DNA of 64,000 nt, the filler included, from Jimgerdemannia flammicorona (taxonomy: Eukaryota): the NCBI GenBank assembly GCA_003990765.1. It is 3 parts of 3 records of this genome, joined end to end, with 100 filler letters (N's around TTAATTAATTAA, not from the genome) between each part and the next. Parts side by side here need not be neighbours in the genome. Positions count along the whole stretch, not along the records: positions 21,392 to 42,680 come from RBNJ01001485.1; 2 more parts are not named here. One strand, written 5' to 3'. The notes beneath the pieces were generated by a model. It did not search any database. It was not told the origin of the DNA and worked only from the letters and a program-made list of their open reading frames with translations. Of the stretch, positions 17,051-58,293 are shown piece after piece. Both the position numbers and the translations under genes were made by a program. The stretch's first letter is position 1. Every line of letters starts with the position of its first letter.

Positions 17051-20000
17051 GGTTGGGTTCCTCAATGCACTTGGACTACCCCAGAATAAGTTCAATATGC
17101 TCAGTTGGCTGATTGGTCCTGCCCTCAATATTCCTTTCATATATGAAACATGGTACATTCCACTGTGTCTCTCTCTGCTCATTTACATGTCCTCTCCTCT
17201 GACATCACACAGGATTGTAGGTCACCAGAATAGTGGTCTTGTGATCCTTGTGTCAAACCATTTTGCCCCCCTCATTTCTGGGTCTTCTACTGACCCCTTC
17301 CATATCCAGCTCATGTTCCAGAACCTGGCTTTGGTTGGGGCTTATACCCCCACCTCTCTTCCCATTGGTGGCTTCCATGACCTTGTATCTAGTCTCTTTT
17401 CGGGTAAGGCCCTTTTGATCGGTGACATCAATACTCACTTTGGTACCTATCTTGGTGATATCAACTCTGGTCCTCATGACCAAATAGATGTCATTGACAC
17501 CTCTTTGATGAAATGGTCATTGAACCACCTGACCCCGGTGGCTAGATCTATACACATTGACCATGCATTTGCCACTGTGTCCCTCCTTGCATCCCTCACC
17601 TGCACTACTCCTCCTGTCACCACTGACTACCTCTCCCTCCTTACTGTCTCATTCCCCTTCTCCCCCTTGTCAGTTGTTGCCTTGGCTGGCATCTGTCATT
17701 ACTCTGTGAGATACCTGACTGATCCGGTCATTCAGGCTCATCTTTGAGAATCAGTAGATATTGTTTGTGATATTGTTGTCAGGTTCATATACTCTATTCG
17801 AGACCATATTGCTGGCTTTCATTCTGTGGAAGATCACCAGCAGTTCATAGATTCTCTTGATGCCCTTTTAACCTCTGGTCTACAGTCAGTCTGTGAGGAT
17901 ATTCTTGGCTCATATGATGTAAGAGAAATCAGGGTGGCACTGCTCCCTCAGCAGGACCTCCTTCGCAGTGCATCTTCAGTCTCTGATGCCATTTGTGGTT
18001 TTAAGCAAGTATACTACTCCACCTCCCTCACTCCTCTTCAATCTTGCTCTCCTGCTGTCTCAGTGTTCAACAATGTGGTTGTCCACTTTATCACTATCTT
18101 TGGTCAACTGGATGCCTTCCTCTACCTCAATAACTCTGAGGATGTCTTTCCCCTTGGTATGAGTGCTCTTGGACTATAGTCTTGGTTTGACTAGCCTGTA
18201 ATTTGGAGGGCTATCTGCAGCTACCCTCTCTTGAAGATCTGTAGAGCCAACTCCTTACACATCCAGATCCTTCAGATGATAGCAGGCAAGAAGGATGCAC
18301 CCTGTAGCCTGTCCAAAGCCCTGTCCTTTTTCTTCCAGATGTGCATGGTTTGGGGGCTCACTCTCTGTTACTGGAATTCTGCCATTATCACTCCGGTCTC
18401 TAAGAAAGAGGAATTTTGAATGATTGATGGATTTTGCCCTATCCCTCTCACCAAAACGTTTCATAGACTCTTTGAATAGTATTTGGAAGGATAAGTCAAA
18501 AGCCAAAGTGGCCTGACAGAGATGTCATGCTGCCAAGGTGGCTTCTGGACCTGTTTCTTGTCCCTTTCCTATGTCTTGCTCTCACACAAGATATGGGCTA
18601 AGGGATGGGGCTGCCATGTCTTTCTTGACCTCTGGCAGGTATATGATAGAGTCCCCCTCAAGCTCATTCTTTCCCAACTTGAGGTGTGAGGTGCTGATGC
18701 AGCCCTCCTTAGCATTATCCAAAACCTATCAATCACTATTCTTATCAAGTGGTTGTTAATGGCCTCATCACCCCTTCAGTTCCTACTGAGTGTAGCTTTT
18801 TTCAGGGCTCCCTCCTCTCTCCTTGGCTCTTTGATATCTTTATTGACCCCCTCACTACCTCCTTTGACAAACAATTCAAGGAGTATGACTTCCCCCTTGG
18901 GCTCTTCTTCACTGATGATATTGCTCTCACCCCCTGCACTGTCACAGAAGAGCAGAGGATGATTCACTTTTGTGAGGATTGGCTTCTGATGAATGGTATG
19001 GAGCTCAACCCCAAGAAGTTCAGTTATGTTGGCTCTGCTGACTGTACTGTGCAGATTGGGGGTGAGTCCTGCCTGTGATGCCCCTCTTATGTATACCTGA
19101 GCATGCCTTATACTAACAAAGAGTTTGACTTTGTCGACCTTGTGTTACAGAATGCAGTAAAGGTGAAGCAAACTCTTGGGTTCTGCCATGCCCATGGTCC
19201 CCTCTGGTTGTCAATGGTCAAGCTGGCCATTGTATGGACATTCATTAGACCTCAGCTGGAGTACAGCCTCCCCCTTCTACATGCCTCCTGTCTGGCAACT
19301 ACCACAGGGCTTCAGGTATTGAAGCATCCTGAGCAGGTCTTTGATGATGTTGTCACTTGGGCAGTCGGATTTTCCGGCTGTCCCTTGTTTGGCAGTTCAA
19401 TTCTTGGCCTCCCTTCCTTCCTTTGTCATATGTCGGACCTCTGCTGCATATTCCAAGCCCATCTGGATTGGTGTAGCAAGTCTGGCAACAACCCCATCAG
19501 CCACCTTAGCGATCAATTTATCACACATCTCCCAGGTTCTATTATTGACAAGTTCTGATATTGGACCTCTTGGCTTGACTTCCTCAACTAGTACTGGGTC
19601 CTCTATCCCCAGGTCCACAAGACTCGCTTGCTCTGCTCCTTCCTCCAGTCTTTCCTTTGGGAGTAGTTGCTTCAGAAATAGGCTTCCTCTTCTCAGGCTC
19701 TCATTCAGTATATCACCCCCAAAGGCTACTTGTGGTTGCAGGGTGCCGATCATGTCCTCTTCTTTCCCCCCCAGCTTATACACTCTGCTCTTGCCTGGCA
19801 CTATGGCTACTTTGGCCAACCCTGCCCCTGACCCTGTGGAGACAAGTTTCATCATGGCCATCTCCTCAGGTGTGGTCTTCTCAATGGTTCATATTCTGCA
19901 TTCCAAGATACTTCTGATCGAGATAATCAACTCGATTAGTTTACCAGTAATGAATGATAGGAAGAACTTTGTGCCTACTCTCTTTATGCTCTTCATGAGA

Positions 20001-20092
20001 CAGCCTACCATGCCATAGATATTATGTATAATTCTGGTAGCCACCTTATGGTCAGGTTCTGCCTGACCAAGATTACAAAGATACTTGGGTGA
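17047..20092 (+). pseudogene. Family B ORF2 APE-RT (disrupted)
   Basis: VGFLNALGL, FIYETW, LIGDINTH, IDHAF, FQGSLLSPWLF, FFTDDI. Confidence 0.9.
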
Positions 20093-20487
20093 TTGAGTGA
20101 TCACACATTTTCTTTATTTCTTTTTTTCCCCTCATTTGCCTCAGTTGGTTCTCCCTTGTCATTGAGAGCACATTGAGTTATTCATCTCATGTCAGTTGTT
20201 TGGTATTTGTGTGTCAATATGGTTTCTGTAGTTGGCACCAGGCATTTGTGTATTCTACTTAGCCTTTCTTTTCTTTACTTTTATCATTTATTATCTTTAC
20301 AGCCATGACAAAATGGTTTTATCCAGCCCATCCATAGGGTAGTTACCTCTCTGGCCTTTGTTTTGTACTTCTTAGCTAGTTGTTTACTTCACTGGTCTTG
20401 TTTTGCTTTTCTTATCTTAGGAGTCTTTGCCATTTATTACTCTGATGTATCCTATCTTCTCTACAATGAATAAATTCTTACTTGAAG

Positions 20488-20504
20488 CCTAACCCTAACC
20501 TTAA
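20488..20504 (+). repeat. Telomeric-type repeat tail of B3, separating B3 from B4
   Basis: cctaaccctaaccttaa. Confidence 0.85.
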
Positions 20505-21291
20505 TAAGACTTGGGTTACAAATATCAGTCTTGATCTCTTCTCTATCACTCTCTTATTAGCAGACTCTATTTTGAAGATAGAGGTACTGTGGTTATAAAG
20601 AGTGAGATAGTGATAGATCTTGAAGTAGAAGCTTCTGCTTTCAATTTCTCTCCAGTTATTGATATTAATATACCTCACCCATAATGAGAGTTGGGTTCCT
20701 TAATATACTTGAACTAACTCAAAATAAGTTTGATATACTTAGTTAGTTGATTAGTCCCATCCTCAATATTCTTTTTATTTGTAAAATATATTCCTTTCTA
20801 CTATATCTCTCCTCACTCATTTACATATCTTCACTCACCTTATCATATAGGATCATGAGTCACTAGAACAGTAGTCTCATTGTACTTATTTTAAACTACT
20901 TAATGCTACTTATTTCTGAGTTCTCTACAAATCACTTCTATATTTAACTCATATTCCAGGCCTTAGTATTAGTTGGGATTTATACCCTCCACTCACTTTC
21001 TATTAGTGTTTTCTATGATCTTATATCTGACCCCTTTTTACATAAGGTTCTTTTGATCAGTGACATTAATACATACTTTAGTATCTACTTTGTTGACATC
21101 ACATCTGGTTTTAGATGTCATTAATATCTTAAAGATAATATAGTCTTTGAACAAACTGACTCTAGTAGCAGCTAGATTTATATATATTTCCTATATATTT
21201 GTCACTGCATTTCTTCATATATTTCTTTTCTGCTCTTCTCTTCCTATCTCTGCCAACTATTCTTCTCTCTTTACTATCTCTTTTTTTTTTT
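20505..21291 (+). mobile_element. Family B copy B4, heavily decayed (end of ORF1 + APE region), cut by contig end
   Basis: 20505-20640 aligns to B3 16870-17000; atgagagttgggttccttaat at 20684 matches the ORF2 start. Confidence 0.8.
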
Positions 21292-21391
21292 NNNNNNNNN
21301 NNNNNNNNNNNNNNNNNNNNNNNNNNNNNNNNNNNTTAATTAATTAANNNNNNNNNNNNNNNNNNNNNNNNNNNNNNNNNNNNNNNNNNNN
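21292..21391. other. Artificial contig-joining spacer
   Basis: N44-TTAATTAATTAA-N44; the 12-mer puts stops in all six frames. Confidence 0.97.
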
Positions 21392-24300
21392 AAACTCTCC
21401 CAGACAGACCATGGCAAGAAAGGGTTTGGATCTACCAACAAACCTCCCAGTCAAAAGGTCACTACCATGAAGGAAGATGATGAAAATTGGTACAAGAGAA
21501 TTGCAGATGGTTATGCACCATGTGGATGATGCCCTCAATCCATTTGAATGTACTGCATGGAACATGTTGGTGAATGCCATGCATGCCTCTCCAAAGTTTT
21601 CAAAATTCAATCCGAGAAATGCCCAGCTCAACAAACTGAGGAACACAAACAAGACAACCCTCCTTGTGAAGGATGGGGAGAAATTGACTTCGAGGAGACT
21701 GACAGCAATTGGAACAATAACGAGGATGAAGAGCTCAATACCATCAAGAAGGAGAATAGTTGCATCAAGTTCACAGGCCAAGTCTATAGACAAAATGTCA
21801 ATGTCTTGCTTGATAGTAGTGCTACTGGAAACTATATCAGCACTAAGACCGCCAAGAGGATTGGAGCCTGAAGCAGACCAACTACGGAGAAAAGAAGTGT
21901 TATCTTCAGTGATGGAAAGACTGCACCATTGACTAAGATCTGTGAAGACCTTTTGCTCAAGATTGGAAAATATCAAGAGAAGTTGGACTTCAGCATTGTA
22001 GACCTCCCAGGACAAGACATTATCTTAGGAAAAGCCTGGTTGACCCAGCACAACCCAGATATCAACTGGAGAACCAATGAGGTTAATCTGACCCATGAGG
22101 GCAGAAAGATCACTCTGACACCCCAGGAAGGTATCAACCACCAAGGAATCGAAATCATCTCTGCCATTCAAATGAAGAGACTATCTCGAAAAAAGGGAAA
22201 CACCTACTTCATCTGTACTGTACAAGAAGTCACTGAAGCTACGAGCAGCCCAATTCCAACAGAAGCTCAAGAACTGTTCGAAGAATTCCAAGATGTATTC
22301 CAAGATCCTCAAGGACTCCCACCCAAGCACCAAATCCAATATGGAATTGATCTTATCCCAGGATCTGAACCCCTATACAAGAGTATCTATCAACTGGCCC
22401 AACCTGAGCTCAAGACCCTCAAGGATGAGTCGACCAAACTACTGGCTCAAGGATACATTGAACCCAGCCACTCTCCATTTGGAGCCCCAATTCTATTTGT
22501 CAAGAAGAAGGATGGCTCTCAGTGAATGTGTATTAACTACAGAGCCCTCAACAAGATCACTATCAAGAATCGGTATGCCTTGCCCAGGATTGATGAGTTG
22601 CTACACTAAATCTTCAAGGCCAAGACCTTTTCTCTACTAGATTTGCGAAATGGCTACCACCAGATTCTCATTGATGAGAAGGACATTGAGAAGACAGCTT
22701 TCCAAACATGGTTTGGACACTACCAGTTCCAAGTCATGCCTTTTGGATTGATCAATGCACCAGCAACATTCCAGTATCTGATGAATGATATCTTTGGACC
22801 ACTCCTCAACATCTGTGTCCTTGTATATATTGATGATATACTAATCTACAGCGAGACAGTGGAGCTACACTATACCCACCTTAGACAAGTACTGACTCTT
22901 CTGCGAGAACACCAGCTCTATGCCAAGATGAGCAAATGCAAGTTCTTCCAAGACCAGATTGAATACCTGGGACACATCATCTCTGCTAAAGGTATCAATG
23001 TGGACCCCCAAAAAGTATCAGCCCTTAAGGATATCCCTATCCCTACTACCCTCAAGCTACTCCAGCACTTTCTGGGTATTGCTGGTTATTACCAAAGGTT
23101 TATCCAAGGATACTCTGCTATTGCAGCCCCATTGACCAGCCTGGCCCATAAAGGAGTGAACATCAAAGTTGAATGGACCCTCGAATGCACCCTGGCTATG
23201 AACCATCTCAAGAGACTCCTTACCGAGGCCCCAGTGCTAATTGTACCTGATCCTACCAGACCATTCACTCTGACCACAGATGCCTCTGATATTGCTATTG
23301 GAGCAGTGCTCAGTCAAGAAGACCACCCAGTGGCCTACCTCTCCCAAAAGCTCAAACCAGCTGAGACCTGGTATACTACCCATGAGAAGGAACTCCTGGC
23401 TATTGTCACTACACTCCAGGAATGGTGCCATTTCCTCCTAGGACAGCCATTTGTGGCCTACACTGATCACTATGCACTGTGGTATATTCACACACAGCCC
23501 ATACTGACCCACAGACAAGCCCGCTGGATGGAAATCATTGCCACTTTGATATGAAAATCAAGTATAACTCAGGCAAAACCAACTGTGTGGCTGATGGTTT
23601 CTCCAGGTACATGAAAGACAAACTTGTCTTCATGGTCGAAGTAATTGGAGATCTTACCCAAATGATCAAGGAGGGCTACCAGCAAGACAGCCCCCTGATG
23701 AATTTCCTTCAATTCTGCCAAGACCCAGAGGCTGAGGTTCCCGAACCCATGAGGCAAATGGCCAAGAGATTTACCTACCATGATGGACTTATCTACAGGG
23801 ACCATGACAGAGTGGTCATACTCAACAATGATACTCTGTGACTCAAATTTATGCAGGAACTCCATGATACTCCTGCAGCAGGACACTTTGGTTTCGAAAA
23901 GACCTATAATCTCCTCTCAAGAGAGTTCTACTGGCCAAAAATGACCAAGGATATCAAAGACTTTGTGGCCTCATGCAAGATGTACCAAAGGTTCAAAAGT
24001 GGTAACAAGCTACCAGCAGGACTCCTGCAACCCTTGCCTATCCTGAGTCACAACTGGGACCAGATTGCAATAGACTTCATTGTCCAACTCCCCAAGACCA
24101 AGGCAGGATGGGATGCCATCGTGGTATTCATGGACCACCTAAGTAAACAAGCCCATTTTGCACCCACCAAGACCACTGCTACAGCACCAGAGATTGCCAA
24201 GATCTTTCTCAACCAAGTATTCAGGCTATATGGCATGCCTAGCACCATTGTATCTGACTGAGATGTCAAGTTTACAAGCAACTTCTGGAAGGCATTTTTC

Positions 24301-25152
24301 TCCCTCCATGGAACCAAGCTGAAGTTCTCTACTGCCTACCACCCTCAGACTGATGGTCAAACTGAGCAAACAAACAGGACTCTCAAACAGATGCTTAGCA
24401 TCTTCTGCTGTTACAAGCAAAATGATTGGGACAAGTATCTAGCCCATGCTGAGTTTGCCTATAACAACAGTCAGCAAACCTCAACAAAGAAGACTTCATT
24501 CTTCCTGAACCATGGTCAACACCCAAGGACCCCAAGTACTACCGCAAAATTAGCAGTCCCAGCAGCCCAAGATCTGGCCGAGACCATTTCTGACCTTATG
24601 CGAATGACAAGAGATGCTCTCATAGAAGCACAAGACTACCAGACCAAGTACGCAAACTTGAAATGAAGAGAAGCCTCCTACAATATTGGTGACATGGTCA
24701 TGCTTAGAACAGACCACCTCCACCCTGACACCCTGGCACAACAACCAGCCAAGAAACTCCGTGCTAGAAGAATTGGACTATACAAGATCATGGAAAAAAT
24801 CAGCAAAGTCAACTACAAGTTACAACTTCCCCACAATATCCGAGTGCACCCAGTATTCCATATTAGCCAATTGGTGGACTACCATGAGAACCCATTCCCC
24901 AAGCAAACATTTCCACCACCACCCCCAATTAGGATCAATGATCATGAGGAATTCGAAATTGAGGAAGTACTTGACCACAAGGTCTGCAAATATCCTTAAG
25001 CAGTCAAGCGCTTTTTCCTGATCAAGTGGAAGGGTTACCCCACCCATGATGCCACCTGGGAAAAAGAAGAAGCCCTGAAGAATGCATGCGAAGCCCTCCA
25101 GGACTACATAGAAATACTCACCCCCCAGCAAAGGAAGGAACTACAGCTCTAA
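21392..25152 (+). pseudogene. pol: G1 pol: dUTPase C-terminus - Cys/His domain - protease - RT - RNase H - integrase - chromodomain (disrupted)
   Basis: LSQTDHGKKGFGST; VLLDSSATGNYIS; SPFGAPILFVKKKDG, GYHQI, VMPFGL, YIDDILIY; TTDASDIAIGAVL; HDTPAAGHFG, AIDFI, IVSD, HPQTDGQTE; EFEIEEVLDHK...FLIKWKGYPTHDATWE. Confidence 0.93.
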
Positions 25153-25797
25153 GCATAGGAGCACACAGCAAGCAGAAGGGTACCACATATTTTTATCTGG
25201 AAACATATAATACCAAACATTGCAAAAAAAGGGAACACTATGGATAACCAACAAAAAAATATCTGAACAAAAGAACAATCTAGTACAGTATAGCAAAACG
25301 CATTTGAACAACTCCATTTCACGCCATTTGTGTCATCTCCACTGGATGATGATGGACGCTTCATGTGAAACTTAGGAAAGCTGACAATGTCGAAACCAGT
25401 CTAAGTCCATCTACATGACAGATATTGTTACTAAAGAATTACCTCGGATTACAAGAAAGTCTATTTCCGAGAGGTTCGAACCCCCAGCTGTGACAATGGG
25501 AGCCCTCGCCCTAGACAAGGATGGCCAGTCCTCACAAATGCGCCAACCAGACAAAAAAAAAGTGGACCAAGACCTGTTAACCCTGTGTAACCACAACTAC
25601 GGGTGATGAGATCTTTGAAATCAGGACTTTCTCATGTGACTAGCATATGCTCCGCTTATAGCACAGGTCATGCATTTTGCCAGAAAGCATGACCAAAGGA
25701 AGGTCACATCAGATGGGTGAATAGGTATAAATACCCAAGACAAGAATACCCTGCAACTCTCATCCCCCTTTTCTTACAAAGAAAAGACAAGACAAGC

Positions 25798-26623
25798 ATG
25801 CCTGCCACCCACCGCCAAACTGCCTGCCATAGCCAGCCCCTCCCAAGCCAGGTTGACTGCCTCTTTGGACATATCCAGGTTGCCATCCAAGGAAGGAACT
25901 GCCGCTCAGAGGCCCTTAACCTCTCCAGCCCAGACCTAGGACAGTATGTCCTTGACTGCCATGAAATTATTGAAAGGGCCTACCTCGCTACCAGCTGCCT
26001 AGAAATCTGGCATGAATATGAAATTGGTCACCAGCTTCTCCAACATATAAGGCCTACCTATGGACCAGGTCTCTGATTGGACCCACCTAGACAGGCATGA
26101 GCAAAGACTTGCCAAGAAGGTCCATCAAATCATGCGCCATGTACCCTTCACGATCCCCAACCTCAACTATGTACAACTGAAGGACTTCCAGAACCTCTCT
26201 TTCCCTGAGGTCGATGCCCTAGAAGTCAAGGTCACCCAAGAAGCCAACTCCTGGATTGTCCTCAAGTCTACTGACATCGAGCCTCACTGGAGCCCCCTCC
26301 TGAATGACAACTCTGACCAATGGCTCCAAGGTCTCTCTGACCTCTTTGAAGGACCATCTATCTGAATGGATATTCTCAGGCATGAAGATCAAGAGCCCTA
26401 CTTGGATGGCCCCAACTGCATCAGATGGCAAACCCCTACACCAGTACCTATTCCAATGCAAGAACCATTTGAAGACCTCATTGACTTCTCCATCCTGGAC
26501 AGTGAGCCACCAGTAACCACTCCCCCTGCCCCTGAAGAAGATGATAACAACCCTGAGGAGGATTCCCGACCTATCTCTCCCCTGGTTCTCAATTTCTCAA
26601 TCAACAAGGATGTTGATTTCTAA
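25798..26623 (+). pseudogene. G1 accessory 3' ORF of unknown function (frameshift/stop)
   Basis: MPATHRQTA...ATSCLEIWHEYEIGHQL...LDRHEQRLAKKVHQIMRHVPF...; TATAAATA at 25726; homolog at 54276-53396; stop abuts the PPT. Confidence 0.8.
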
Positions 26624-26634
26624 GGGGGAAAGGA

Positions 26635-27471
26635 TGTAATAGAATGAAAGAGTGTGAATAGATGGGACACAATGAATGATGAATGACAAATGACAAATGA
26701 TCATGTGACCTGGCGATGATGTCATCATACAAACGAAGCATGACATATGAATTACAAATGATGAATGATGCGAACGATGTGAAATGATGCAGAAAATGAT
26801 ATCCAGCTTATCCTCAACAATTGGTGCCACAGCAACAGTTGCCACAGTAGCTGATCATTGTCTAGTAATTGAGGTCCTGATCACAAAGTTGTTTTTTGTC
26901 AAAAACCACCTGACAAAGGTCGCGATCACAAACCTCATTATAGTTACCAAATTAGTCACTCATACTTAGTCAGAAATCGCGGACCAACTTGTATAAATAT
27001 CCCCCAGTTTCCATCTGAAATAAAGCAGTTTTAGTTCAGTCCTTGATACAAAAATCAAGTCCCCCCTCCCCACATACATTCCCCTGAGTCTTAGTAATGA
27101 TATCTAAGTAACTCTAGTGTTTCTGACTAAACTCCAGAAGCCTAGCTAACTTCTGCCAGAACTGAGACTGGTATATAAATCTCCAAAGACTTAAGTAAAC
27201 CCATTGAACCTGAATTCCAAGACGAATTCAGTCTGTGCACAGCAAAGAACAAGACCCTCGAAATAGGGCACAAGAGAAAGACCTTTGAAACAGAAGGCAA
27301 ACCAGAGAAAGACCTTTGAAAGATAAGGCACTGCTGCTACAACTACTTTAAGTGAGTGCTTCCTCAAACTGAAGGCTTCTTGGTATACATTGTGTACTAA
27401 GTCCCTAAGTAATAGTCCTCTTCCCTAATTATCCAAAGGATAAGAGAGAGATAGAAGTGAGAGTTATTACA
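26635..27471 (+). repeat. G1 3' LTR (~837 bp)
   Basis: Preceded by PPT aagggggaaagga (26622-26634); tgtaatag...ttattaca termini; TATAAAT at 26992 and AATAAA at 27019. Confidence 0.8.
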
Positions 27472-30400
27472 CTAATGTACAAGGAGCTGACGATCCAGCA
27501 AGAATCCTGGCCTTTAAGGCCTGGCTCCAGGTAACCTACTACACAGATGAAATCAAACAGGCACTCAAGGATCAATTAAATACTATGTATCTGCCAAGGA
27601 ATGTCTGAGGACCCAAATATATTCTACACAAGAATCCGACATCAAATAGTCCTTGCTGACTACCCTGATGCAGTTCAAGACCAAGTGGCTGAGAATACCT
27701 TTATGAAAGGTATTCACCAAGAAATCGCTTTAGCCATTCGATCTACCCCAACACCACTGGGCCTGGGACAGAAGGTTACCTATGCTCAAAGATACTGGAC
27801 TGCCAGACACCCTCAAGGCCATACAATGGAAAGGATAACTAGAGTAAAAATTGAACAAGCACCAAGAGTCACCAATACAATCCCAGCTACCATAGTCAAC
27901 CGGAATACACAACCACAACCACAAGACCAGAGAAGGGTTGACCCAATGGAGGAACTGGCCAAACAGTTTGCAGGAATGACTGCACACCTCAGCGATGTAG
28001 TCAAAGAGTTCAAGAAGAAGCCAGTCCAGAAGTTTGCTGCTACAAATGCAAGATGATCAATAACATGCTATAATTGTAGAGAAGAAGGCCACTATGCCTC
28101 CGAATGCATGACAGAAACCAAGCGAAAGGCCAATCCAAGCAATGTAACCAGGAATTGCAAACAAGCAAACACTATCACCTTCAAGGAGATTGGAGAATCC
28201 AAGGAAGAGAGGGAGGAATAGGAAGCTTACCCTGCCACCTCAAGCAAGAAGGATGTCCGATCCAGCCCCTATAAGAAACCAGTGGGCAGACTTCCCAAGA
28301 AGGCACAGACACAGACAAGACAACCAGAAATGGTAAATGAAAAAAGATTTAGCAGGGAGAAGCTAATCAAGATATAGAGCTAGAATAAGATGATGAACTT
28401 GAACAAGCGGTAGATGATATTATCCAAAACACTACCCCATCAAGTGAAGGAAAGAAGGAGCAGAAATTGTGCAAAAGCAAGACCTTTAAGTATGATATCT
28501 TCAAGGATCTCAAGGACCAAAAAGTCAATGCAACCTTCAGCCAACTAGCAGAAATTCCAACATTCAGACAACAAATGAGGACAGGAATCTCAGATATCAG
28601 CAAAGACCAAGGTTACAGAATAATTGAAGCCAACAATGCACAAGAAGATTCAGATGAAGAGAGTGAAGATAACCAGAAAACATCAGCCTATACTATCTGC
28701 CAGATCAAGGACCAGGTCTTTGAAGCTATCATTGATACAGGAGCAGGAGGATGTCTCATCACCAAGAAAGCAGTAGATCGCCTAGGTTGGGAGATCGAAG
28801 AAGCCACCAAATTGGTGTTTGTCACAGCTGATGGGACATGAGCAACACCCTTGAGAAAAATCCGGGATGTACCAATCAAGTTTGGTGAAGCCACTATCCC
28901 TGTGGATGTCATTGTCACCAATGCAACCAACTATGATATCCTCATCAGCAACCAGTGGCTTCACAAAGCCAAGGCCATGATCGACCTTAGTGCACAGAAG
29001 ATGCAGATCATCTACCAGGGAAAGAAGATCAGAATTCCCATCAATGTCCACAAAGGAGTCTGCCCCAAGATGGAGGAAGACCAAGAAGAAGAGGCCTATA
29101 TGGTTACTACGAAGAAAGGAAAAGGCAAGCAATTGACAGAGGAAGAATGGTATATAAGAATCGCAGATGGATATGCCCCACTAGGAAGGTGCCCCCATGG
29201 TGAAAGAATATACTATGCCTAGCACTTGGATCACTGCTACTCTTGTATCATTGAGGTGAAGAAGATCACCAATAAGCCAAAGAAGAACCAGAAGGAACCA
29301 GAAGATGGACCACCAGAACTATTGGATGACAGCAATGATGAAGAAGACATCATAGTCAAGATATGAAGAATCCACCCTGATGCAGTCATGTCATAATACA
29401 AATTGGAGAGTGCAGCAGGAATGAACCTATCTACCATAATACACACAATACTTGAACTGCAGACCACTACCATTCTAGGAATAGGAATTGAAGTGACCAT
29501 CCTGCCAAACCATGTCAGAATCCTCAAGACAAGGAGCAGCTTGGCAAAGAGCGAAATATCGATAGAAGGAGGAGTTATTGATTCAGACTACATAGGAGAA
29601 ATTCTCCTCCTTGCCAGGAACCACAACCCAACCATTCCATTCGAAGTAAGGAAGAAGGATCGGCTGGCACAAATGCTCATCCTACCTGTCCTTAATCCAA
29701 GAATCAAGGAGGTCGTAAACATCAGACAAACTCAACGAGGAAGAGCTGGATTTGGCTCTACAGGAAGAGGAGTCCTCGCAGCAACTAAGATCACTAAATT
29801 AGAGCACAAGAAGGAGGAAAGTCAAGACAAATACACCTATATAATTGGAAGAAACTTTCCTCTCAAAGAAGAATTGCAGAACCTCTTGCATACATTTGAG
29901 GATATACTGGCCATGGATTTCAAGGACATCAAGACCAAGAAACCCCTGTATTATCATGATATCAATACTGGAGATGCAAAGCCAATCTATCAGAAGGCCT
30001 GCCCCATTCCACCAGCATACAGAGAATGGCTCAAAACAGAAATCAAGGAAATAGAGGAATCCGGTCTCATCGAAGAAGCCAGCAGCCCTTGATCCTCCCC
30101 CATCATTCTTGCATCAAAGAAAGAAAGCCGACCAGGAGAATTTGCATCAAGACTCTGCACAGATTATAGAAGACTCAACGAGGTCACAGAGAAGGACAGA
30201 CAACCATTGCCCAATATTGGCAATATTCTCATCATGCTGGTGAATGAATCACGATTCTACACCACCTTGGATCTGTTCTCAGGATTCTACCAAATCGGCC
30301 TTACACTAGAAGCCAGCAAAAGATCAGCCTTCATCACCCCTGATGGAACCTACATCTATCTCCACATGCTCTTTAGAATGTGCAATGCACCAGCAAGCTT

Positions 30401-32471
30401 CCAGTGAATGATGAATAGTATCTTCAGGGATGTTATGGAAAAATGGATGATGGTATACATAGATGATGTGATCATCTTCAGCTGAAGAGCCAAAGAGCAC
30501 TTGGACCACACTAAGGAAATCCTCAGAAGGCTTCACAAACATGGCCTCTATATCAAGCCCAAGAAATGCAAGTTTGGAGAAGAAGAAATCGCATACCTTG
30601 AATACATCATCAACTGTGAAGGAACACATACAGACCCTACAAAGATCAAGGCAGTAGCAGTATACCCAGTACCTACCAGTGTCACTGAAGCCTGAGCCTT
30701 CATGGGACTTACATCCTACTATAGAAGATTTATTGGAAGGTTCTCCCACATCACCAGTCCTATCTATGATCTGTTCAGAAAAGAGGTCAAGTTCCAGTAG
30801 ACTCAGCAGCAGTAACTAGCCTTTGACGAGCTCAAGACCAGATTGACCCAGGCCCCAATCCTGAGAAAACCCGACTGGACTCAGGAGTTTATTCTGCAGA
30901 TGGATGCCAGTGCAATGGGACTTGGAGCTGTCCTCACACAAAAGAAGAATGGTGCCAAATACATGGTAGCTTATCTCAGCCAAGGTACCCAAGGAGCCGA
31001 GCAGTCCTATGAATCATACAAGTTGGAATGCCTTGCAGTCATCTGGGCTGTAGAGAAGTTCCACTACTATCTGGCTAGCAGACACTTCACCATCCAGACA
31101 GATCATTCAGCACTCACCTGGTTGCTCACTACCAGTGAGCCCAAAGAAATCTATACCCGATGGATTATGAAGCTGCAAGCATACAATGCCACAATCACCC
31201 ACTGCTCTGGAAGAACCAATGCTAATACCGACACCCTCTCACGGATACCCTGAAGGACCCCACCCCAACAAAATCACCATGAATAAGGAGCTGTACTATG
31301 GAATCATCAGCTATCTGGGGCAGTAAAAGATGCCCCCGCATCTGGAAGAATGGACAAAAACAATTATTAATCGGACATGGAAAAAATTCGAAACTGATGG
31401 AGAAATACTTAAGAAAGGACAACAATTAGTCATTCCCGAGCACTGGAAGAATCAAGTGATGAAAGAGGTACATGAACAAGGTTACGTAGGAGGAACAAAC
31501 ACCTATGATAAAGTGAGAAGAACCTTGTGGTGGCCCGGAATGGAGGAAGATATCAGACAATTTGTCAGAACCTGTGACAAATACCAGAAACAGAAACAAG
31601 ACCAATGAGATCAAGCTCCTGGATCAGCAGACATCAAACCAATACCATTTGCCCACATCGCAATGGATGTAATTGACCCCCTACCCCTGACATTGACCAG
31701 CAACTGATATGTTATTGTAATAGAAGACCTGTTCACAAAATAGGTAGAGGCCGGACCCCTCAAGAAAGCCAATGCACAGTCAATTGCCGATTTTTTTCAC
31801 AGAGAAATCATCTGCTGATTCAAAACCCTGAAGCAAGTTACCACAAACAGAGGAACAGAATTTGTCAACCAGTTTCATGAGATTCTTTACAAGAAATGCA
31901 AGATCCAACACATCAAGACCACAGCCTATCACTAACAAGGAAACAGACAAGCAGAAAGAACCAACAAGACCCTCAAGAATATCATTGCCAAGATCTGTAA
32001 TGAATATGGAAACTGGGACCATTATCTTCCAATAGCATTATCCACTTTGCGGGACATATAATCACAAAGCACCCATTTTACACCACGAGAAATACTATTC
32101 AGTGAAGAAAGTTCTAGTGGAAGTTTGTCAGCAAGTAATGATGCAATCTGGAAGCATATGGATACGGAGATAGGGAGATTGCACCAAATCAGGAAAAAGG
32201 TAGAGGATTACATAATCAAGGCGCAGGCACTGTAATGGAACAATGCAGAAAGGACCCACAAGCCCCTGGAGATTATCAAGATAAGAGATGAAGTTCTGGT
32301 ATATCAGAATATGGTAGAAGCTTCTTGGTCATACAAACTGGAGCCCAAGTGGGAAGGACCTTACCTGGTGCAAGATATAAAAGGGACAACTTTCTGACTA
32401 TGAAAGCCCTCAGGCACAATAATCCACACCACTATTCACCGAAACCAACTCAAGAAATACCATGGCCAATA
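27472..32471 (+). pseudogene. gag-pol: G2 gag-pol: zinc knuckle - protease - Cys/His domain - dUTPase - RT - RNase H - integrase (disrupted)
   Basis: CX2CX4HX4C at ~28067; AIIDTGAGG; LDLFSGFYQI, YIDDVII; QMDASAMGLGAVL; KLECLAVIWAVEKF; PFAHIAMDVI, EPKWEGPY. Confidence 0.9.
29353..29765 (+). pseudogene. dut: dUTPase domain within G2 pol
   Basis: All five motifs are recognisable: SAAGMNL, TRSSLA, GGVIDSDYIGEI, DRLAQML, TQRGRAGFGSTG. Confidence 0.92.
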
Positions 32472-32923
32472 ACCGAAGCACTGCAGCAGCACTCAAGATC
32501 ACTAGTGCTGCACAAAGGGCTATTGAAAGGCAATGGCACACTACTGAACCTCCAACTATAGAGGCATACTATGAGGATATTCAGAGTATTGTACAGACTC
32601 ATCTCTCTCAGATATCGCATTTTAGTACCTACCAACATCAGGCAGAGTTCCAGGAGTACTTCAAGCTTGGACAAGTGCTCAACCAGGATCCAGTGAAAAC
32701 CAAAGAAGACTGGATCACAGAGTGCCAACTCTCCTACTCACAGATCACCATCACTAAAAGAATCCACAAGTTATTTTGAGAAGATAAATCAGCACTAGCC
32801 CACCTGCGAGGAGTAACTCCTACTGACTTTGGTAAAGTAAGGAGACATCATTGGGAGACAGTCATACAACAGATTGAACAGTACAAGACCATTCAGACAG
32901 TAGAAGCCTGGGAGTTTGAATAG
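32462..32923 (+). pseudogene. G2 accessory 3' ORF of unknown function (one internal TGA)
   Basis: MANNRSTAAALK...EFQEYFKLGQVL...TKRIHKLF*EDKSALAHLRGVTPTDFGKV...; ATG overlaps the last codons of pol. Confidence 0.75.
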
Positions 32924-32960
32924 ATGCCTCAGAGATGAGACCATCTATTCAGGAGGAAGT

Positions 32961-33417
32961 TGTGATGGTATAGCCAAATTAGGGAGAAGGAAATAGGGAA
33001 TAGACAATTGATCGCACCCATTCCCAAAAGTAGTATAGTTTTATAGTTAGCAGTTGCCGATTTCAACATTGTCTAAATTTCTAGACATTGTCCAAATCGA
33101 ATCTCCTGATTTAGTATAGCATTTCAACATTGTCTAAGTTTCTAGACATTGTCTAAATGACTCATAACTTAGCTGCGTAACTCAGTAGCCATCTCATAGC
33201 TAGCAAACTTGTATAAATAACCCAGTATCTTTGAGTGAATAAACCTCAGATTGAAAGTGTTAGAAAAAGAACAAGTATACCGATAAAAGGACCTTCGGGA
33301 TTACCTCTTTAAACACATTTGGCCTCAAGGAACTACTGACTCTGGGAGTCAAGAAGACAAGAATTCAAGATAAAGAAATCCTACATACTTACCCATCTTA
33401 GCATCTACTACATTACA
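32961..33417 (+). repeat. G2 3' LTR (~457 bp)
   Basis: PPT aggaggaag at 32951; tgtgatg...cattaca termini; internal 38-bp duplication (33060/33121); TATAAAT at 33212 and AATAAA at 33238. Confidence 0.7.
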
Positions 33418-34102
33418 ATGTATATTTGACTATATACTAAATGAAATTTTCTAATATAGGCTACTCTACCACTAAATTATCTTTGGTAATTATTACAATT
33501 TGTTAACCTTCTGATAGAGTTAGTTAATTATATACTATCAAACTTATAACTGTTAACTAAAATCAGAAGTATGATTAAATCATAAATTAGATATAGATGA
33601 TTAATATATATTTACTTAACTCTATTACAAAGATGATAAAATTATTCTAGTGAGTAATAATAATATTAAAATATATTATCTATATTGTAAGGCTCAAAAA
33701 TATATAAAAGCTACTGATGATAAATAACATATAAGATATTGATAGTTCTTTTCATTTATTTACTTATGAGAAATAGAGAGTAGTTATCAATCTTATACAT
33801 ATATACTAAAAGATATATAAAGATAATAAGCCATATAATGAGAGTAAGCTACTAGAAGTCATAATCTATATACTTGGAGTACTTATGATAAGTACTATCA
33901 TAGTTATGAAATAATTTATATTGATGACTTCTTATCTATAATACTATAAGTAGGTTATATATATATAGTAATAAGAATCTACTATTCTATAATAATATAT
34001 AATGGGTCTAATATTATGCAATTATCTGGTCCTATCTCTGAACTTACCAAATAGCTAATTATCAAATGGGATAATTTGACACAAACAACAATCTACTTGA
34101 AG

Positions 34103-37100
34103 TTTTTTTTTTTTTTTTTTATTTTTTTTGACTTTACCTTTTTTTATTTTTATAGTCTCTTTGACTTTACCATTTATTATCAGTCTATCAAATATATACA
34201 GTACCCCATTTCACTACCTAATCCCCCTAGGGGGACTCCCCTCAACACTCTTATGCTTGAACACTATCTTACCATTAATTATTATAACTCTTCCCCCCCT
34301 CTGCCACCAATTTTCTCTACTAAATAATATTATTAACCTCTCTACAGACTCCATCCCAGCAACTAAATCAAGATATCTACCATCAACCCTTCCCACCTTA
34401 TCAGCTACTCTCCCAAACTCAATCACCATCCTTTCTCAAAAACAAACAACTAGTGTCTAGCCAACCCTACTTATACAACTAAAACCCAATCAATAGTGAG
34501 TCACTCATACTAACCCCTCCCACCAATCTATCTCTCAAATTCTCCCATCAACCCCTCTCATCATCCCACCTCCTCATAATACATAGTACCTCATACTCTC
34601 TCAGCCAATGTTCTGGCATCTGCATAAACCCCTCTCTCTGTCCTACATTATAACACTCCTCACAATCAAAGTGTCCACCCTCTATAAGATAGTCTGATCA
34701 AAAGTTGAGCATGACATTCTTCCTCAGCAAGTGCCACTAAACTATCCAGAACTTAGGTGTCAGCTATCAACATATCTCAGCACTCTAAGCCTAAACAGCT
34801 ATCTATAAGCCACTAGGCCATACATTCTATCCTAACCCTCTCTGGCACTCTATATCATTACCAATATTAAAGTCAATTAGTAGAGTACCCTCCAACAACA
34901 TTCTATCTCATCTTTACATTACCAGGCCCCATAGTATCTCCCTCAGCCCTCTGCTAGCAAAGATCAATATAGTGTGCTCCATTAACTACTTCTTACTAGA
35001 AGCTCTTATACTATATATACCTACTGTTCTGAAGCCCAACCAAAGACAGCAAATTCCTATAGAGCCTCTTGGTGAAAACCTCACCTCTTAGATCTTTTTC
35101 ATTAGAGGAACCCAGCTACCACCCCTCAGTTCCATAGCTCTCTTTAGCCACCAAACCCTCAGACATTGCAGCCTCTTTGGAAAGTCAATGAGTCTAAGGC
35201 CTCTTCTAGCTACTGGTAATGACATAATTTCTCAGCTAATCTGACTCTATCTTCTAGCCCAGATTCAATCTTTGGCTAGCTTTAATAGCCTCTTCACCAC
35301 TTAGGCTGGAAAGTCTAGATGATATGCTAAATACTATAGCTTTGACAGTCAATAGACATTCAAGATTGAGACACAACCTACCAAAGAGATGTGGCAGTCT
35401 CTCCAACTCTGCAGGGCCTCTACCTATGTAGCCACCCACTGCTCTCACCAAGTTCTTAGTAGGATGAATCCATAGATCACAAGATAGATATCCAGGTACC
35501 ACACAGTATCTCCAGCAGGGGCAATTGTTCCAATGATATCACCTCTCACCAGACTATTGCCCAACACTATTATTTCATACTTATGTCAATTGAGTTTAGC
35601 CCCAGAGTGTATCTCATATCACTCTACTATTTCCTGAAGTTCTTTGATATCTATAATTGATTTCAGGCCAACTACTATATTATCTGCAAAAGCTCCAAAC
35701 TTACAGACAATTCTAAATATTAAGAGCCCCACTACCTTTTGCTGAATCCTGTCCATCAACAGCTCCAAGAATAGAGTATACAAAATAGAAGACAGCAGAT
35801 CTCTCTAGAGAACATCTCTACCCAGAGAGATTACTACTCCCTAATAACTATTATATATGAGCACTGCTCTACTCCCTTCTAGTAGGCTAATCATCACCAC
35901 TCAAAACTACTGAGGGACTCTAATCCTATCCAGCACCTTCACCAACCAGATCTACCTAACATGGTCATAGACCTTCTCTTGATCCAGAAAGACCAATCTC
36001 TCATCCAGCCCACAGGCTTGAGCCCTCTCAATGACACTATGAACCCAAGCTATATCATCTCTGATGAGCTGATCTCTAATAAAACCTCATTGCTCCTCAC
36101 CTAAGACTTGCTGGACAACCTTCTGTAGTCTTGCAACAATTACCATATAACTAATGTTCTGTCCATGTTCAGGAGCATGATAGGTTGTCAGCTCTTCTAG
36201 TCTTCTCTCCTGCTTTTATCCTTATACAACAGCATCACCAGCCCCAGATCCTGCTCTTCCACCCACTTCTCCGACTGTAATGATAAGTTTCAAAGCACCA
36301 TTATCTCTCCCAGTATCTCAGGAATTTCCACCATCTTCTTCCAGAAGACCCAGGGCACACTATCCTCCTCTGGTGCAGTGCCCAGTATAGTCATGACAAG
36401 AATCTGATAAATCTCCTCCTCCTGGACTGGTATGTATCACTAAACTGCTAAGCCCATCTACTTGTAGTGGGTGCCAATTCTCCAAAACATATTCAATAGT
36501 AGCAGCATTGGCCCCACCCTTCTTCTCACTCTACAGACTACTCCACCTCTCCTTCAGTGAGCCCAAAATATCTTATGCACCATGTACCAGCAGACCATCA
36601 GAATTTAGTACTCCCTCCTATCTCTGCCTCACTCTCCTTGCCTAAAGGATCCTTGAGAGATACTTAGAGGGCCTCTCTCCCTCCCCCAGCCCCTGCCAGC
36701 GTAGCTGCATAGCCATTCCTCACACTAGTATCTCCTCCTTCTCTCTTAACACCTGATGTAACTCAGTGATCTCCAGCTTTACTTATATTAATCTCCAGTC
36801 CTCAACCCCCTCTAAGGCCAAAACACCTGCCCAATTCTTCTGAAGCCAGGCCAATCTAGCAGAGGACCAGGTTACTCTCTCTCTTCTATGTCTTCCTACT
36901 ATCCAGCCTATCTCATCTCAGTAAACCCTAGCAGCCTCCTTTAACCTCACATATTGAATATCAACTAGAACACCCTCTTGGACCCAATCCTCCACTTTCT
37001 GCCCAATATCCTCAGCCTAATTGTCCTACAGCCCCTTCTCAGCCAACAAAGAGGAATTGAGGCACCAATGTCCAGACCTATCACCACTTTCCCCAAACTG

Positions 37101-53395: not shown

Positions 53396-54276
53396 TTAGA
53401 CTCCTTTCATAGAGCCATCCTCATATAACTTGAAGTTGAATGTAACTAGGATTATGTCATCCTCATCCTCCTTCTCATTTTCTTTAGAGAGTCTAGCCAA
53501 ATCATTTTCTGCATCCTCTACAGTTGTACTGAGGTTAGTGGAGAGCTCTGTGGGTGCTAACAGTGGGCTTATATGCTCCTCCAGGAGGTTAATATCTTTT
53601 TCCTATGAGATAAGCAGTTTACTCTACTCTGATTCTTGATATCTCTAACCAATAGTATTATAATCTACAAAGTAGGGTATATCTGTAAAATTCTGAAGAT
53701 AGCAGACTCTCAGAGGAGGGCCTTAGAACAATAGAATCAGATCTTGAAGAAACTGATCTGAGTTGTTTTCTAGGATAGAGTTCCAAAGGTCTTGAATCTC
53801 ATTACTTTTAATTGTGATAGTAGACTGGGCTTCTTCTAGAACCATTTCTTCAAGATAATTTGTAAAGCAGCTTGTCAGTTATTAGATATCTGAAACCTTA
53901 ACTTATTTTAAATTAGAAATGGCCAAAGGTACATACCTGAAGATCTGGTAGACTCTCTTGACCAACTTCTGTTCATATCTATCTAGGTATATTACATATG
54001 TAATTTCTTGAGGCAGGCCTGTGGGATATCTTGGCAGAGATGATGCCCCAACTTATATTCTTGCCATATCCAGAGACACTTAGTAGCAGTAGAGATCCTT
54101 ATTTCCATTTCATAGTAGTTGAGAGTATAGTGGTATAGGTCTCTTGTAAAGTAGTTCAGGCTTGCAGTCCTTCTTATATATATCCTCATAGCCCTTTTGA
54201 TATCAGAGAACATCCGATTTTGGACTGATAGACCTGGGTAGTTTCTTGATCTTGCTGTTTGGCAGATGGTAGGCAT
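53396..54276 (-). pseudogene. G3 accessory 3' ORF, homolog of the G1 3' ORF
   Basis: MPTICQTAR...ATKCLWIWQEYKLGHHL...LDRYEQKLVKRVYQIFRYVPL; TATAAAA about 60 nt upstream (54341-54335). Confidence 0.8.
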
Positions 54277-57200
54277 TTTGTTTTATAGTGAGTTTCTTAT
54301 TTGTAAATAATGTCTTATACTTCTTTTCAATACTTTTTATATCCTAAGGGGGTCTCCTTCTTTGGTCCAGAGATAGAGTCATCTGATTTAGAGTAGTATA
54401 CTACTGAGGCTATTATGAGTTATAATGAGTTTGTATTCAAATTATCTTCTGACCATGATGAGTCATAGTTGAGTCACAATTCATAATCAGAGACTTATGA
54501 AGACTGAGCAGTCTTCTGGCATTGATATCATTAGTTTTTAAGGTTTTGTCACATATACTCCTTGCAAAATTAGTACCATTCTCAGTGAAGATAGTTGCAC
54601 AGGAATAGCAGGTCTTGGTTCTCTTTTTTTTTTTTTGAACTATTGGTACATTTACAAGGACTGGCTATCTTTGGCTAGGGTGAGTACCCATTGTCATGGC
54701 TGGGGGTTTAAACCTCTTAGAAATAATATTTTTAATAATCTGAGGCAATTCTTAATAGTAATATCTATCCTATAATAGACTTGAGATTCGTTTTGACAAT
54801 GTCAACTTTCTTGAGTTTCATATAAAATATCTGTCATTCTCTAATAAAGGTAATACAGATGGAGTAAATGGAGTTGTTGAATATATTTTACTTCTCCTAA
54901 GTAATAAGGTCTTATGTGATTGCAATATATCTTGGTCTTGAGTATAACTCTATCTAGGGTCTTAAGTTGATAAGTATGGTTTGTGAACTTTTGATAAATA
55001 AGATAGGGTCCTTCCCATTTTGGTTCAAGTTTGGTACTTTAGTTTCCTTCCATAATGGTATGGTACACTAAGACTTATTGTCTAATAAGTAGAGATTCAG
55101 AGTCAGCCTTATAGTTATAATATTTCTTCTGGCATTCTTATGTCTTAGCAATAAATCCTCATGCTTACTAGTATACTTCATATAATCAGATGATCTCTTC
55201 AGTGACATATTTTATCAAATCCAGCTAGATCAGTTTAGCTGGGTCATGAGCTTCTCAGCCATATACCAAATAGAAAGGGGTCTGTTATGTAGCAGTAGCT
55301 TTTGAAGTATTGATGCTAAATAGGGTTAATAAGAGGTAGATATCTCAATTCAATTGGTCTCTAGTTTTACTGAGGCCTCACTTGATGGTCTGGTTAATTC
55401 ATTCCATAAGTTTATTTGCTTGTAGGTGGTAGGGTGTTATTGGATGCAGTTTGATTTTAAAGTTATCTATAAAGGTCTTCATAGATTTGTTGACAAATTC
55501 TCAGCCTTAGTCTATGATGATTTCCTTGGAGACACTATAGTGACTGAAAATTTCATTATATAAGATTTAATGATTGTCTGGGCATCAGCAGTCTCAATGA
55601 CAAAGGCTTTAGGCTATTTCATCAATAGTGAGGATATAGCATTTTTCTTAAAGGCCAATGATGTCTATTCCCAGTCTTTGAAAGGCTCTAGCTAGTGCTG
55701 TAATTGATATTAGTGGTACTTTATTAGTTAGTTTTTGTTGGTATCTTTGACAGATATCACATTGTTGAATGTGTGTTGAAATTTGTTTTCTCATTTTTAG
55801 TCATCAGTATCTCTTCTTGATTCTTACAATAGTGACTCCAATTCCTTGATTTACATTCTGATCATAGTTTGTTATAAGTATCTTTTATATTTCTTCTTCT
55901 TGTAAAACCCAAGTGTATTGATCTCCTTCTACTCTCCAAAGTTCACCATTACCTTCTTGAAATTTTTAAAATTCCTCTGAATAAACAGCTTATGAGCAGG
56001 CTGAATTCTCTTTTTGAAGCCTCTATGGTACAGGCTCCAGGTAAGGGTGAGGCCTAGTTCTTGATTTATTTGGATTAATGGAAAGCAGCCTTCTCTCATA
56101 TGGGCTCCTTTCCTTCTTATTGATTTCATGAAGTTCTTGATGGAGTATCAACATTGGAATTCTTAATACATTTCTTATAGTCAATAGCAAACTGGTAAGA
56201 TATGATCTATCTGGTTAAGATTCCTGAGGGCTTTGGTTTGTTGAACAATTATTATAAAGCTTGGTGGTCAGTGATAAGGGCAAATCTATTTTCCAAGAGA
56301 TTGTATCTGAAGTGATCTATAGCCCATACTACTGCAAACATTCTAGCTTAGTAGCACCATAGTTTGTTATATATCATTAGTGATCTTACTAGTATACTCA
56401 ATGATATATTCTTTCTTCTGATCATCTAGCTAAGATAGAATTGATCCAGGTTCAAGAGCAGAAGCATCAGTTGCTAAGATATGTAAATGGTTTATCAAAA
56501 TCTGGTCACACTAGGATAGGGGCTTTATTGAGAGTCTTCTTGAGTAGGTCAAATAACTTCTGCTGTTCTTTCTTTCAGTAAAATGGTTGATCTTTCTTGG
56601 AAATATTATATAGTGGAGCTGCCTTGTCTGAAAATCTTAGGATGAACTGCTATTAATAAGATACTAATATTAGAAAGGACAGAACTTCCTTTGTAGAGGT
56701 AGGAATTAGATAGCTTTTGACTTTCTCTACCTTACATAGGTCAGCATGGATTCTTTAAGCTGAAACTATATATCCTAGATATTCAACTTAGTGTTTTTCA
56801 AAGAAGCACTTCTTGGCATTAAGTCTGAGTCCTGAGTTTCAGATGATATCAAATACTTTACAAAGATCTTATAGATATGTTCAAATATTTCTGAGTAGAT
56901 TATTATATCATCTATATATACTGGCACATTTATCTCAATGAGGTCTCAATGGATATATATAGTCCATCATTCAATATAATGAGGCTAGTATATTGCAGAG
57001 TTCAAATGGTATTTAGAGGTATTTATACTATCCTTATTTAGTGATGAAGGCTGTCTTGCAGATGTAACTCTTAGTAATAGATATTACTTGGAATTCTTAA
57101 AACTAATCAGTAGTAGTCATGAACTTGGCTTTTCCAAGGATATTGAGAAGGTCAGTAATTCTTATAAGTTTTCTGAAGACTATAACTAGTCTCCATCCTC

Positions 57201-57890
57201 CCTTCTTTGGTATAATGATTTCTGGTGAAGCCCAGGAGTTCAATGAGTATCTGATAACTCTGTTTCATAGCATTTCATCTATGTATTGTTGTTTTAACTC
57301 AATCAGAGAGTGTGGTGTTCAATAGGGATATTGACAGATTGGTTTAGCATCTTCTATATATATAGTATATTCTCTATATTAATAAGATGGAAAGTTATTA
57401 TATGTAGTTGCAAATATATCTGTATCTATTATTACTAATCCTCAGTTAGAGTTGTTTCAACATTGATAGCTTTAATTGCTGAGTCTTTCTCTCTGATACT
57501 ATCAGTCTCACTGGTGAGAGCTTGCTGTTTCACAAGAACTCAAAGATCTCTTTCTCATAGATATCTATCAGTAGCTCAAAATATCCCAGTATTATTTCTT
57601 TGGAAATTTTTACTACTTCAAAGCCCAGGTTTCAAATAGAAATATAGATTAGTGATATTTAGTCAGATTCATTCTTCAGCCAGGAGGTGATACTTTTTCC
57701 AGAGTTCCATTAATGGCTCAAATATCAGGTTATTAGTATTCACAGATAGGTGTATATCAGACTTCTTTGTTAATATAGTTGAAGGTAGATATATTCTCTT
57801 ACTTGAATAGAGCAATAGATATGTGGTTTCATTTAGCAGAACTGAGCTACTGTTGTCAAGTGAACTTCAATAGGTGGTTGAGGGATTCTA

Positions 57891-58293
57891 TTAGTACTTC
57901 CAAAGTCTCTTTATCCTCTCTTAGTACTGCTGAGTTGGTTTACTTCTTGGATAGTGGGTTGAGATATCTTAATGAACAGAATCTGACAGATGGCCTCCAA
58001 AGGGTTCAAGACTCAGTGGTTTCTACTATTGTTGCAAATAATGATATTCAGGGGGCCTTAGTAGTTCTGGTCAATGACTTCTCCTTCTATAATTCCTTTA
58101 GCTTCCAGATATGATCTCGATATTAATTGTCCATAGTATCCAGATGGTATATCAAGTACAATCTGCAGGTCAAAGATTCTAGTAGTCCTGGAATAAAGCA
58201 TTGTCTGATAAGAGAGATAGAGGTTATATCCAACTGATCCTTCAGTCTGCCTAAGAGGGGTTATACCCAGGGTAATAGTAGTTTAACTTGGAT
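57891..58293 (-). pseudogene. dut: dUTPase domain of G3
   Basis: QTEGSVGYNL, IPSGYYGQLISRS, EVIDQNY*G, AICQILF, STKRG*RDFGST. Confidence 0.85.

Follow-up and report, generated by a model that had tools for sequence, protein, structure and literature searches.

The DNA analyzed here, a stretch of 64,000 nt from the Jimgerdemannia flammicorona assembly GCA_003990765.1 that will be referred to as the window, carries the remains of three elements (G1, G2, and G3), in all of which an additional open reading frame, ORF3, is located downstream of a Ty3/gypsy pol (Table 1). The window consists of three unlinked contigs with N spacers in between (21292-21391 and 42681-42780); these spacers, which have a short palindromic linker at their centre, are assembly artefacts joining unrelated contigs. 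G1 and G2 are located on one contig, G1 being inserted into the gag gene of G2, and G3 is located on another. As the contigs are unlinked, the closeness of G3 to G1 and G2 is meaningless. CpG is strongly depleted across the window (observed/expected = 0.13). Genome searches covered the 231 Mb assembly, in which 88 matches to the fungal Zn2Cys6 domain, all exceeding the Pfam cut-off, identify the host as fungal.

Table 1: Features of the three ORF3-carrying elements, with positions counted along the window.
Feature	Position	Strand	Remarks
G1 pol remains	21725..25152	+	protease, RT, RNase H, integrase, Tf2-like SH3, chromodomain-like end
G1 post-pol non-coding segment	25292..25591	+	homologous to G3 segment
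G1 ORF3 TATA box	25726..25732	+	72 nt before ATG
G1 ORF3, long form	25798..26623	+	helical core (predicted), conserved middle block, acidic tail
G1 polypurine tract (PPT)	26622..26634	+	G1 ORF3 stop codon runs into PPT
G1 3' LTR (TG...CA)	26635..27471	+	main TATA and AATAAA near 26990-27025
G2 gag (split by G1) and pol remains	27472..32472	+	PR-dUTPase-RT-RH-IN
G2 ORF3 TATA box	32376..32382	+	within integrase codons; TATAAAA, 86 nt before ATG
G2 ORF3, short form	32462..32923	+	153 aa, core only, without acidic tail
G2 PPT and 3' LTR	32951..33424	+	LTR from about 32961
G3 pol remains	54880..58250	-	dUTPase-like, RT, RH, IN; heavily decayed
G3 post-pol non-coding segment	54594..54892	-	homologous to G1 25292-25591
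G3 PPT-like tract	54554..54565	-	LTR start 54553
G3 ORF3 TATA box	54335..54341	-	inside LTR; 65 nt before ATG
G3 ORF3, long form	53396..54276	-	inside LTR; one frameshift, seven in-frame stops

In the G1 pol, RT, RNase H, the integrase zinc finger, and the Tf2-like SH3 domain were assigned by Pfam; the chromodomain-like integrase C-terminus following the SH3 domain was read by eye only. The pol genes of G2 and G3 show the order PR-dUTPase-RT-RH-IN, in which the putative dUTPase was assigned by its motif, and neither of them has a chromodomain. The Ty3/gypsy order PR-RT-RH-IN was found for G1 by Pfam and for G2, G3, and a further family, G4, by the order of tblastn matches. The three pols in the window represent distinct lineages, which are only 34-40% identical in RT and 30-32% in IN. 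A dUTPase-like stretch is also present in the chromodomain-bearing G1 family, where it is located before the protease (L091, L093-L097, L100, about 2930-3370), unlike that of G2, G3, and G4, which is located between protease and RT. Both placements, before PR and between PR and RT, match those given for the dUTPase of fungal Gypsy elements in the accessible part of PMC2864245. In G4 (L071, L076, L086, about 880-1200), the approximately 300 nt from the integrase end to the PPT might be a continuation of the pol frame or contain another short ORF.

First-look candidates in the genome numbered 5413 for the G1 query, 1755 for G2, and 5314 for G3, values which are not copy numbers; over all carrier-family queries they ranged from 1755 to 5552 per query, and the carrier families are abundant. 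Family G4 surfaced via the G3 query, and family G6 was found via a metagenome homologue. A preliminary description had located the three ORFs of the window correctly. All three copies are broken. That of G1 is disrupted by a frameshift near 26050-26076 together with an in-frame TGA at 26363; that of G2, which has an 11-nt overlap with the pol stop (TAA 32470-32472), is disrupted by one in-frame TGA at codon 106. Intact frames are present elsewhere in the genome, with a length of 267-276 aa in nine out of 30 fetched G1 loci and of 153 aa in 11 out of 30 fetched G2 loci.

The ORF3 proteins of G1, G3, G4, and G6 are 26-50% identical to one another, and that of G2 is 16-19% identical to them. The G2 ORF had been proposed as a more distant homologue of those of G1 and G3, which was borne out by two profile comparisons. 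A leave-out HMM generated from 10 long-type proteins and zero G2-type sequences scored the G2 ORF of the window at 16.1 bits, above all of 2000 shuffles (maximum 11.5), and an open G2 copy at 26.2 bits. Alignment of the long against the short forms with hhalign yielded a probability of 91.9% (E = 7e-7), where an earlier and shallower comparison (G1/G4 versus G2) had yielded 48%. Judged by sequence, the ORF3s of G1, G2, and G3 belong to a single protein family sharing a predicted helical, non-membrane core of about 110 residues. This core comprises a long helix ending in aromatic-x-[IL]-G-x-x-L, a short spacer, a helix with the motif A-[KR]-[KR]-[IV]-[HY]-x-[IL]-F, and a final pair of helices. 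In the long forms, a conserved middle block and an acidic tail are present in addition.

No transmembrane stretch was detected in any of 21 members, with a top 19-residue Kyte-Doolittle mean of ≤1.07, in agreement with the earlier view that the protein lacks a signal peptide and membrane segment and is not env-like. The acidic tail, likewise noted before, carries a net charge of -16 to -29 in all ten long forms. The N-terminal 40 aa have a net charge of +5 to +8 in six of these ten. For the core (aa 41-150), net charges range from -16 to +6, most members being neutral to acidic. Two predicted structures were both helical, at low confidence (mean pLDDT 52 and 48).

Selection on ORF3 was evaluated by calculating pN/pS with CpG codons masked, using for G1, G2, and G4 parts of the ORF which had not been used in choosing the loci. 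The values obtained were 0.28 and 0.31 for two such parts of G1, 0.19 for G2, and 0.33 for G4, as well as 0.20 for the whole ORF of G6, and the upper bounds of the codon bootstrap were ≤0.52 for all four families. For G3, which is represented by old, decayed copies, pN/pS was 0.55. The G1 integrase yielded 0.22 as a control, and CpG-masked wrong frames yielded 0.88-1.37. Hence pN/pS is not near 1 but well below it in the four families with young copies. ORF3 is under purifying selection in five families and is a maintained gene.

A TATA box upstream of ORF3 was found in every family checked. The preliminary description had assigned such a box to G1 and G3 but not to G2. The first part was confirmed, with a box 72-74 nt upstream in all 30 G1 loci and, for G3, 65-67 nt upstream in at least 10 out of 13 loci, but G2 has a TATAAAA as well, 86-92 nt upstream in 28 out of 30 loci. 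In G4 the distance is 84-90 nt (at least 18 out of 19 loci), and G6 shows the variant TATTTAA at 56-62 nt (10 out of 10). TATAAAA is present at synonymous integrase positions in 32 out of 34 loci in which ORF3 directly follows, whereas it is present in none of five G4 loci encoding the same integrase peptide with a later ORF3 start, a small control. The retention of TATAAAA in G2 points to selection on the DNA motif itself.

ORF3 is located between pol and the PPT in G1 and G2 and within U3 in G3, G4, and G6, and its end lies upstream of the AATAAA of the LTR. The env position attributed to all three window ORFs is therefore right for G1 and G2 but not for G3, nor for G4 and G6, in which the gene lies inside the LTR. 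The stop-PPT-LTR junction of G1 is also found on metagenome contig L131, and G1 LTR pairs of 787-829 nt (89-95%) were present in eight out of nine long loci. In G2, about 30 nt separate the end of ORF3 from the PPT, and LTR pairs at 91-96% were present in six out of seven long loci. The G3 ORF had been described as ending just before the PPT and LTR, which proved to be incorrect; the PPT-like tract and the LTR start (54565-54553) are instead located 277 nt upstream of its ATG. Six out of ten G3 relatives match only from the LTR start on and have unrelated flanks, and G3 relatives continue past ORF3 via tandem repeats to a TATA/AATAAA block. Homology to these relatives stops at 53409, where the G3 copy of the window is cut, so that the rest of its LTR is absent. 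The G4 ORF3 is present in both LTRs of element L120 (1496 nt, 91% identical) as well as in L112, and downstream of the 5' LTR copy there is a primer-binding-site-like sequence. In G6, a boundary common to the copies is located about 210 nt ahead of the ATG, and the downstream block is as in the G3 relatives. Paired LTRs were thus recovered for G1, G2, and G4; in G3 and G6 neither LTR pairs nor convincing target duplications were found, and the assignment is based on shared boundaries and solo-like copies only. Since ORF3 is inside the LTR in G3, G4, and G6, their solo LTRs hold the whole TATA-ORF-AATAAA cassette.

At 25620-25640 in G1, a TGTGAC without a purine tract was observed at the distance of the PPT/LTR start of G3. 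This might perhaps be the relic of an old LTR boundary, implying the capture of an LTR-embedded ORF3.

G2 and G4 are sisters in pol (RT 60%, IN 65%), and G1 and G3 are 30-40% identical to all others. Nevertheless, the ORF3s of G2 and G4 are only 19% identical, and that of G4 is 50% identical to that of G3 despite an RT identity of 35%. Compared by eye, the LTR core of G4 resembles G1 and that of G2 resembles G3 and G6. A clade of the G2 and G4 ORF3s was rejected in an AU test with 17 rows (p = 0.001) but not in one with 9 rows of four families only (p = 0.46), and G2 forms a long branch in the ORF3 tree. The conflict between ORF3 and pol relationships suggests that 3' ends were exchanged between lineages, and exchange of the 3' module between pol lineages is likely, one of the two tree tests being in support. 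The preliminary description of a conserved soluble helical protein kept across lineages thus agrees with homology, selection, hydropathy, and the helical models, except that "kept" should probably read as partly exchanged.

The 300-nt segment following pol shows 72-80% DNA identity between G1 and G3, though their pols are about 30% identical, and is also present in many ORF-less relatives (L133-L161) and, in part, on the metagenome contig (L131:12-106). The segment contains no ORF and has no codon periodicity, folds no better than shuffled sequences (z = -0.04), has no match in Rfam, and was not found when searched for in G2 and G4 elements. In 27 out of 30 loci carrying the G3 segment, ORF3 was missing from the available downstream DNA (370-1400 nt); related elements therefore spread without the gene. 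One abundant family (L136-L150, L156, L159-L161) consists of an approximately 300-nt remnant of a G3-type integrase end, the post-pol segment, and a PPT, followed by a different LTR without ORF3; some copies are located near protease and dUTPase remnants, and the family is probably non-autonomous. In L191, two copies of it lie close together in opposite orientation (2789-3452 and 4642-5310; 3519-4198 versus 5389-6069).

A joint profile searched against 1.84 billion representatives yielded 11 matches, ten of them unnamed metagenome proteins of the ORF3 family and one a repetitive false hit. The distant metagenome members P0025-P0028 score with both long and short types; they were found by the joint profile and hence are not independent. 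Profile searches of Pfam, PHROGs, and PDB did not assign ORF3 to a known domain family and gave no entry naming it, a Pfam scan of 19 members yielded no hit, and no description of this ORF3 family was found in a literature search.

To our knowledge, gag and pol are usually taken to be the only genes of fungal LTR retrotransposons. In vertebrate retroviruses, Tas/Bel1 of foamy viruses is a 3' accessory gene under an internal promoter, and sag of MMTV and nef of HIV are 3' accessory genes in or overlapping U3; their likeness to ORF3 is one of layout only, and no homology is claimed. Plant LTR retrotransposons possess sense additional ORFs between pol and the 3' LTR (aORF-3S), which, as far as the accessible part of PMC7264820 describes them, resemble ORF3 as a sense 3' extra gene present across copies of a family and likewise without an assigned function. 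Among loci picked by the ORF itself, ORF3 is likewise conserved in sense orientation downstream of pol in most copies of a family; the aORF-3S location between pol and the 3' LTR applies to G1 and G2, whereas the gene is inside the LTR in G3, G4, and G6. By the description in the same part of PMC7264820, on which the comparison is based, ORF3 differs further in that it lacks a transmembrane segment, has its own TATA box instead of splicing, and is fungal. A fungal Gypsy "add. ORF" of unknown function is drawn in the accessible part of PMC2864245; it is likened to ORF3 by description and may bear on its novelty. Bdelloid rotifer ORF3s, in the portion of PMC5408684 available, are comparable as non-env types common to unrelated lineages via modular exchange, accompanied by dUTPase-bearing pols, but are GDSL esterases, DEDDy exonucleases, coiled-coil or transmembrane proteins, whereas the fungal ORF3 matches no Pfam family. 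The C. elegans Gypsy-type element Cer1 encodes CERV, again a non-env accessory protein and likened by description, which differs in being translated from a spliced mRNA and acting in gRNA export (PMC10309623, accessible part).

Extra ORFs in LTR elements are thus already known, and the ORF3 family is a well-supported addition to the additional-ORF class. On the sequence evidence, we regard it as a real family of accessory genes in fungal Gypsy elements that is as yet unnamed; its TATA boxes are putative promoters, its position varies, and modules have probably been exchanged. One and the same selected protein is retained by at least five abundant families that differ in their 3' layout, with a TATA box in each and a location inside the LTR in three. 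If ORF3 should be a regulator or anti-silencer, it would provide a direct, testable way of studying how the elements came to fill a fungal genome depleted of CpG and would represent retrovirus-like regulatory complexity outside animals.

The preliminary description had suggested a regulator or anti-silencing factor, of which the soluble helical accessory protein stands and the function itself is a prediction. We tentatively favour, at somewhat less than an even chance, a putative separately transcribed, nuclear, trans-acting DNA-binding regulator of element transcription, by analogy with Tas of foamy viruses. A short transcript would run from the internal TATA box to the poly(A) site of the LTR, independent of the gag-pol RNA, and the ORF3 core would bind LTR DNA, perhaps the tandem repeats of U3. 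The acidic tail might recruit the transcription machinery, by which the element would stay expressed in a CpG-depleted and probably methylating host, and tail-less short forms such as that of G2 might act as binders or modulators. Where ORF3 is embedded in U3, each solo LTR would retain the complete cassette and be a potential source of the protein in trans, and the 3' module would have been swapped between pol lineages, probably by template switching. Points against such a regulator are the core charge, which is atypical of a DNA-binding domain, the absence of the acidic tail from the G2 form, the low confidence of both structure models, and the spread of related elements lacking the gene.

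Alternatively, ORF3 might be no plain activator but a protein counteracting host DNA methylation or RNAi, similar to VANC of plant MuDR elements (PMC13547354, accessible part). The CpG depletion of the window, the abundance of the carriers, and the apparent movement between lineages, as expected of a broadly useful counter-defence gene, would fit. However, carrier copies are themselves CpG-decayed, G3 heavily, the purifying pN/pS gives no sign of an arms race, and no resemblance to known suppressors was found. We consider this anti-silencing role rather unlikely; were the protein to bind DNA, it would overlap with the favoured regulator.

A role in RNA handling similar to that of CERV or Rev, in which the protein would bind a cis element of the genomic RNA and aid its export or packaging, appears unlikely. 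The post-pol segment common to G1, G3, the ORF-less relatives, and part of L131 would be a candidate cis element, and CERV, on which gRNA export depends, provides the precedent among non-env accessory proteins. Yet this segment shows neither better folding than shuffles nor an Rfam match and was not found in the ORF3-carrying G2 and G4, and ORF3 has its own TATA box, whereas CERV is made from spliced mRNA according to the available part of PMC10309623.

Decidedly unlikely is a more specific proposal, in which these would be "complex" retroelements whose sequence-specific transactivator or anti-silencer originated from a prokaryote-type DUF1016_N/ParB-like helical domain, with the U3 placement making each solo LTR an autonomous unit of expression in trans and the 3' end spreading as a swappable module among unrelated pol lineages. 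DUF1016_N and ParB-type helical DNA-binding domains belong to bacterial proteins, and neither score against ORF3 was significant. The hhalign comparison with DUF1016_N was in the expected register (probability 1.6%, E = 0.03), and its score of 18.2 was slightly higher than the null maxima of 16.7 and 17.4 from 120 shuffled profiles. A search for the DUF1016_N family (PF17761) across the genome yielded no candidate, and a SopB/ParB profile yielded nothing against ORF3 (0.3%).

A structural or movement accessory that takes the place of env but has no membrane domain, for example, a particle chaperone or a factor for spread among nuclei, seems very unlikely. The location between pol and LTR in G1 and G2 would suit it, and for env-like ORFs of plants, non-fusion roles such as that of a chaperone have been suggested (PMC7264820, accessible part). 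However, structural genes are not usually located in U3 with a putative promoter of their own, as ORF3 is in three families, and no signal or membrane stretch is present. That the ORF3s are open merely by chance or are carried along neutrally, for which the three broken window copies, the G3 value of 0.55, and the existence of ORF-less relatives could be cited, is effectively refuted by purifying selection in the four families with young copies and by the leave-out homology, and intact G1 and G2 frames and protein identities of 16-50% across families argue against it as well.

Further repeats were observed in the window. Several long elements with a strong C/G strand skew (1-4050, 34100-39900, 43100-53300, and 58340-64000) are repeated on both strands at 60-90% identity and give the impression of LINE-type retrotransposons. 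Another repeat of a few kb is present in three related copies (5900-9340, 14100-15920, and 17050-20990; 63-88%). In addition, a tandem array of about ten 24-nt units is located at 9799-10038, and an inverted repeat with 98-nt arms (90%) separated by 178 nt is located at 10687-11060.
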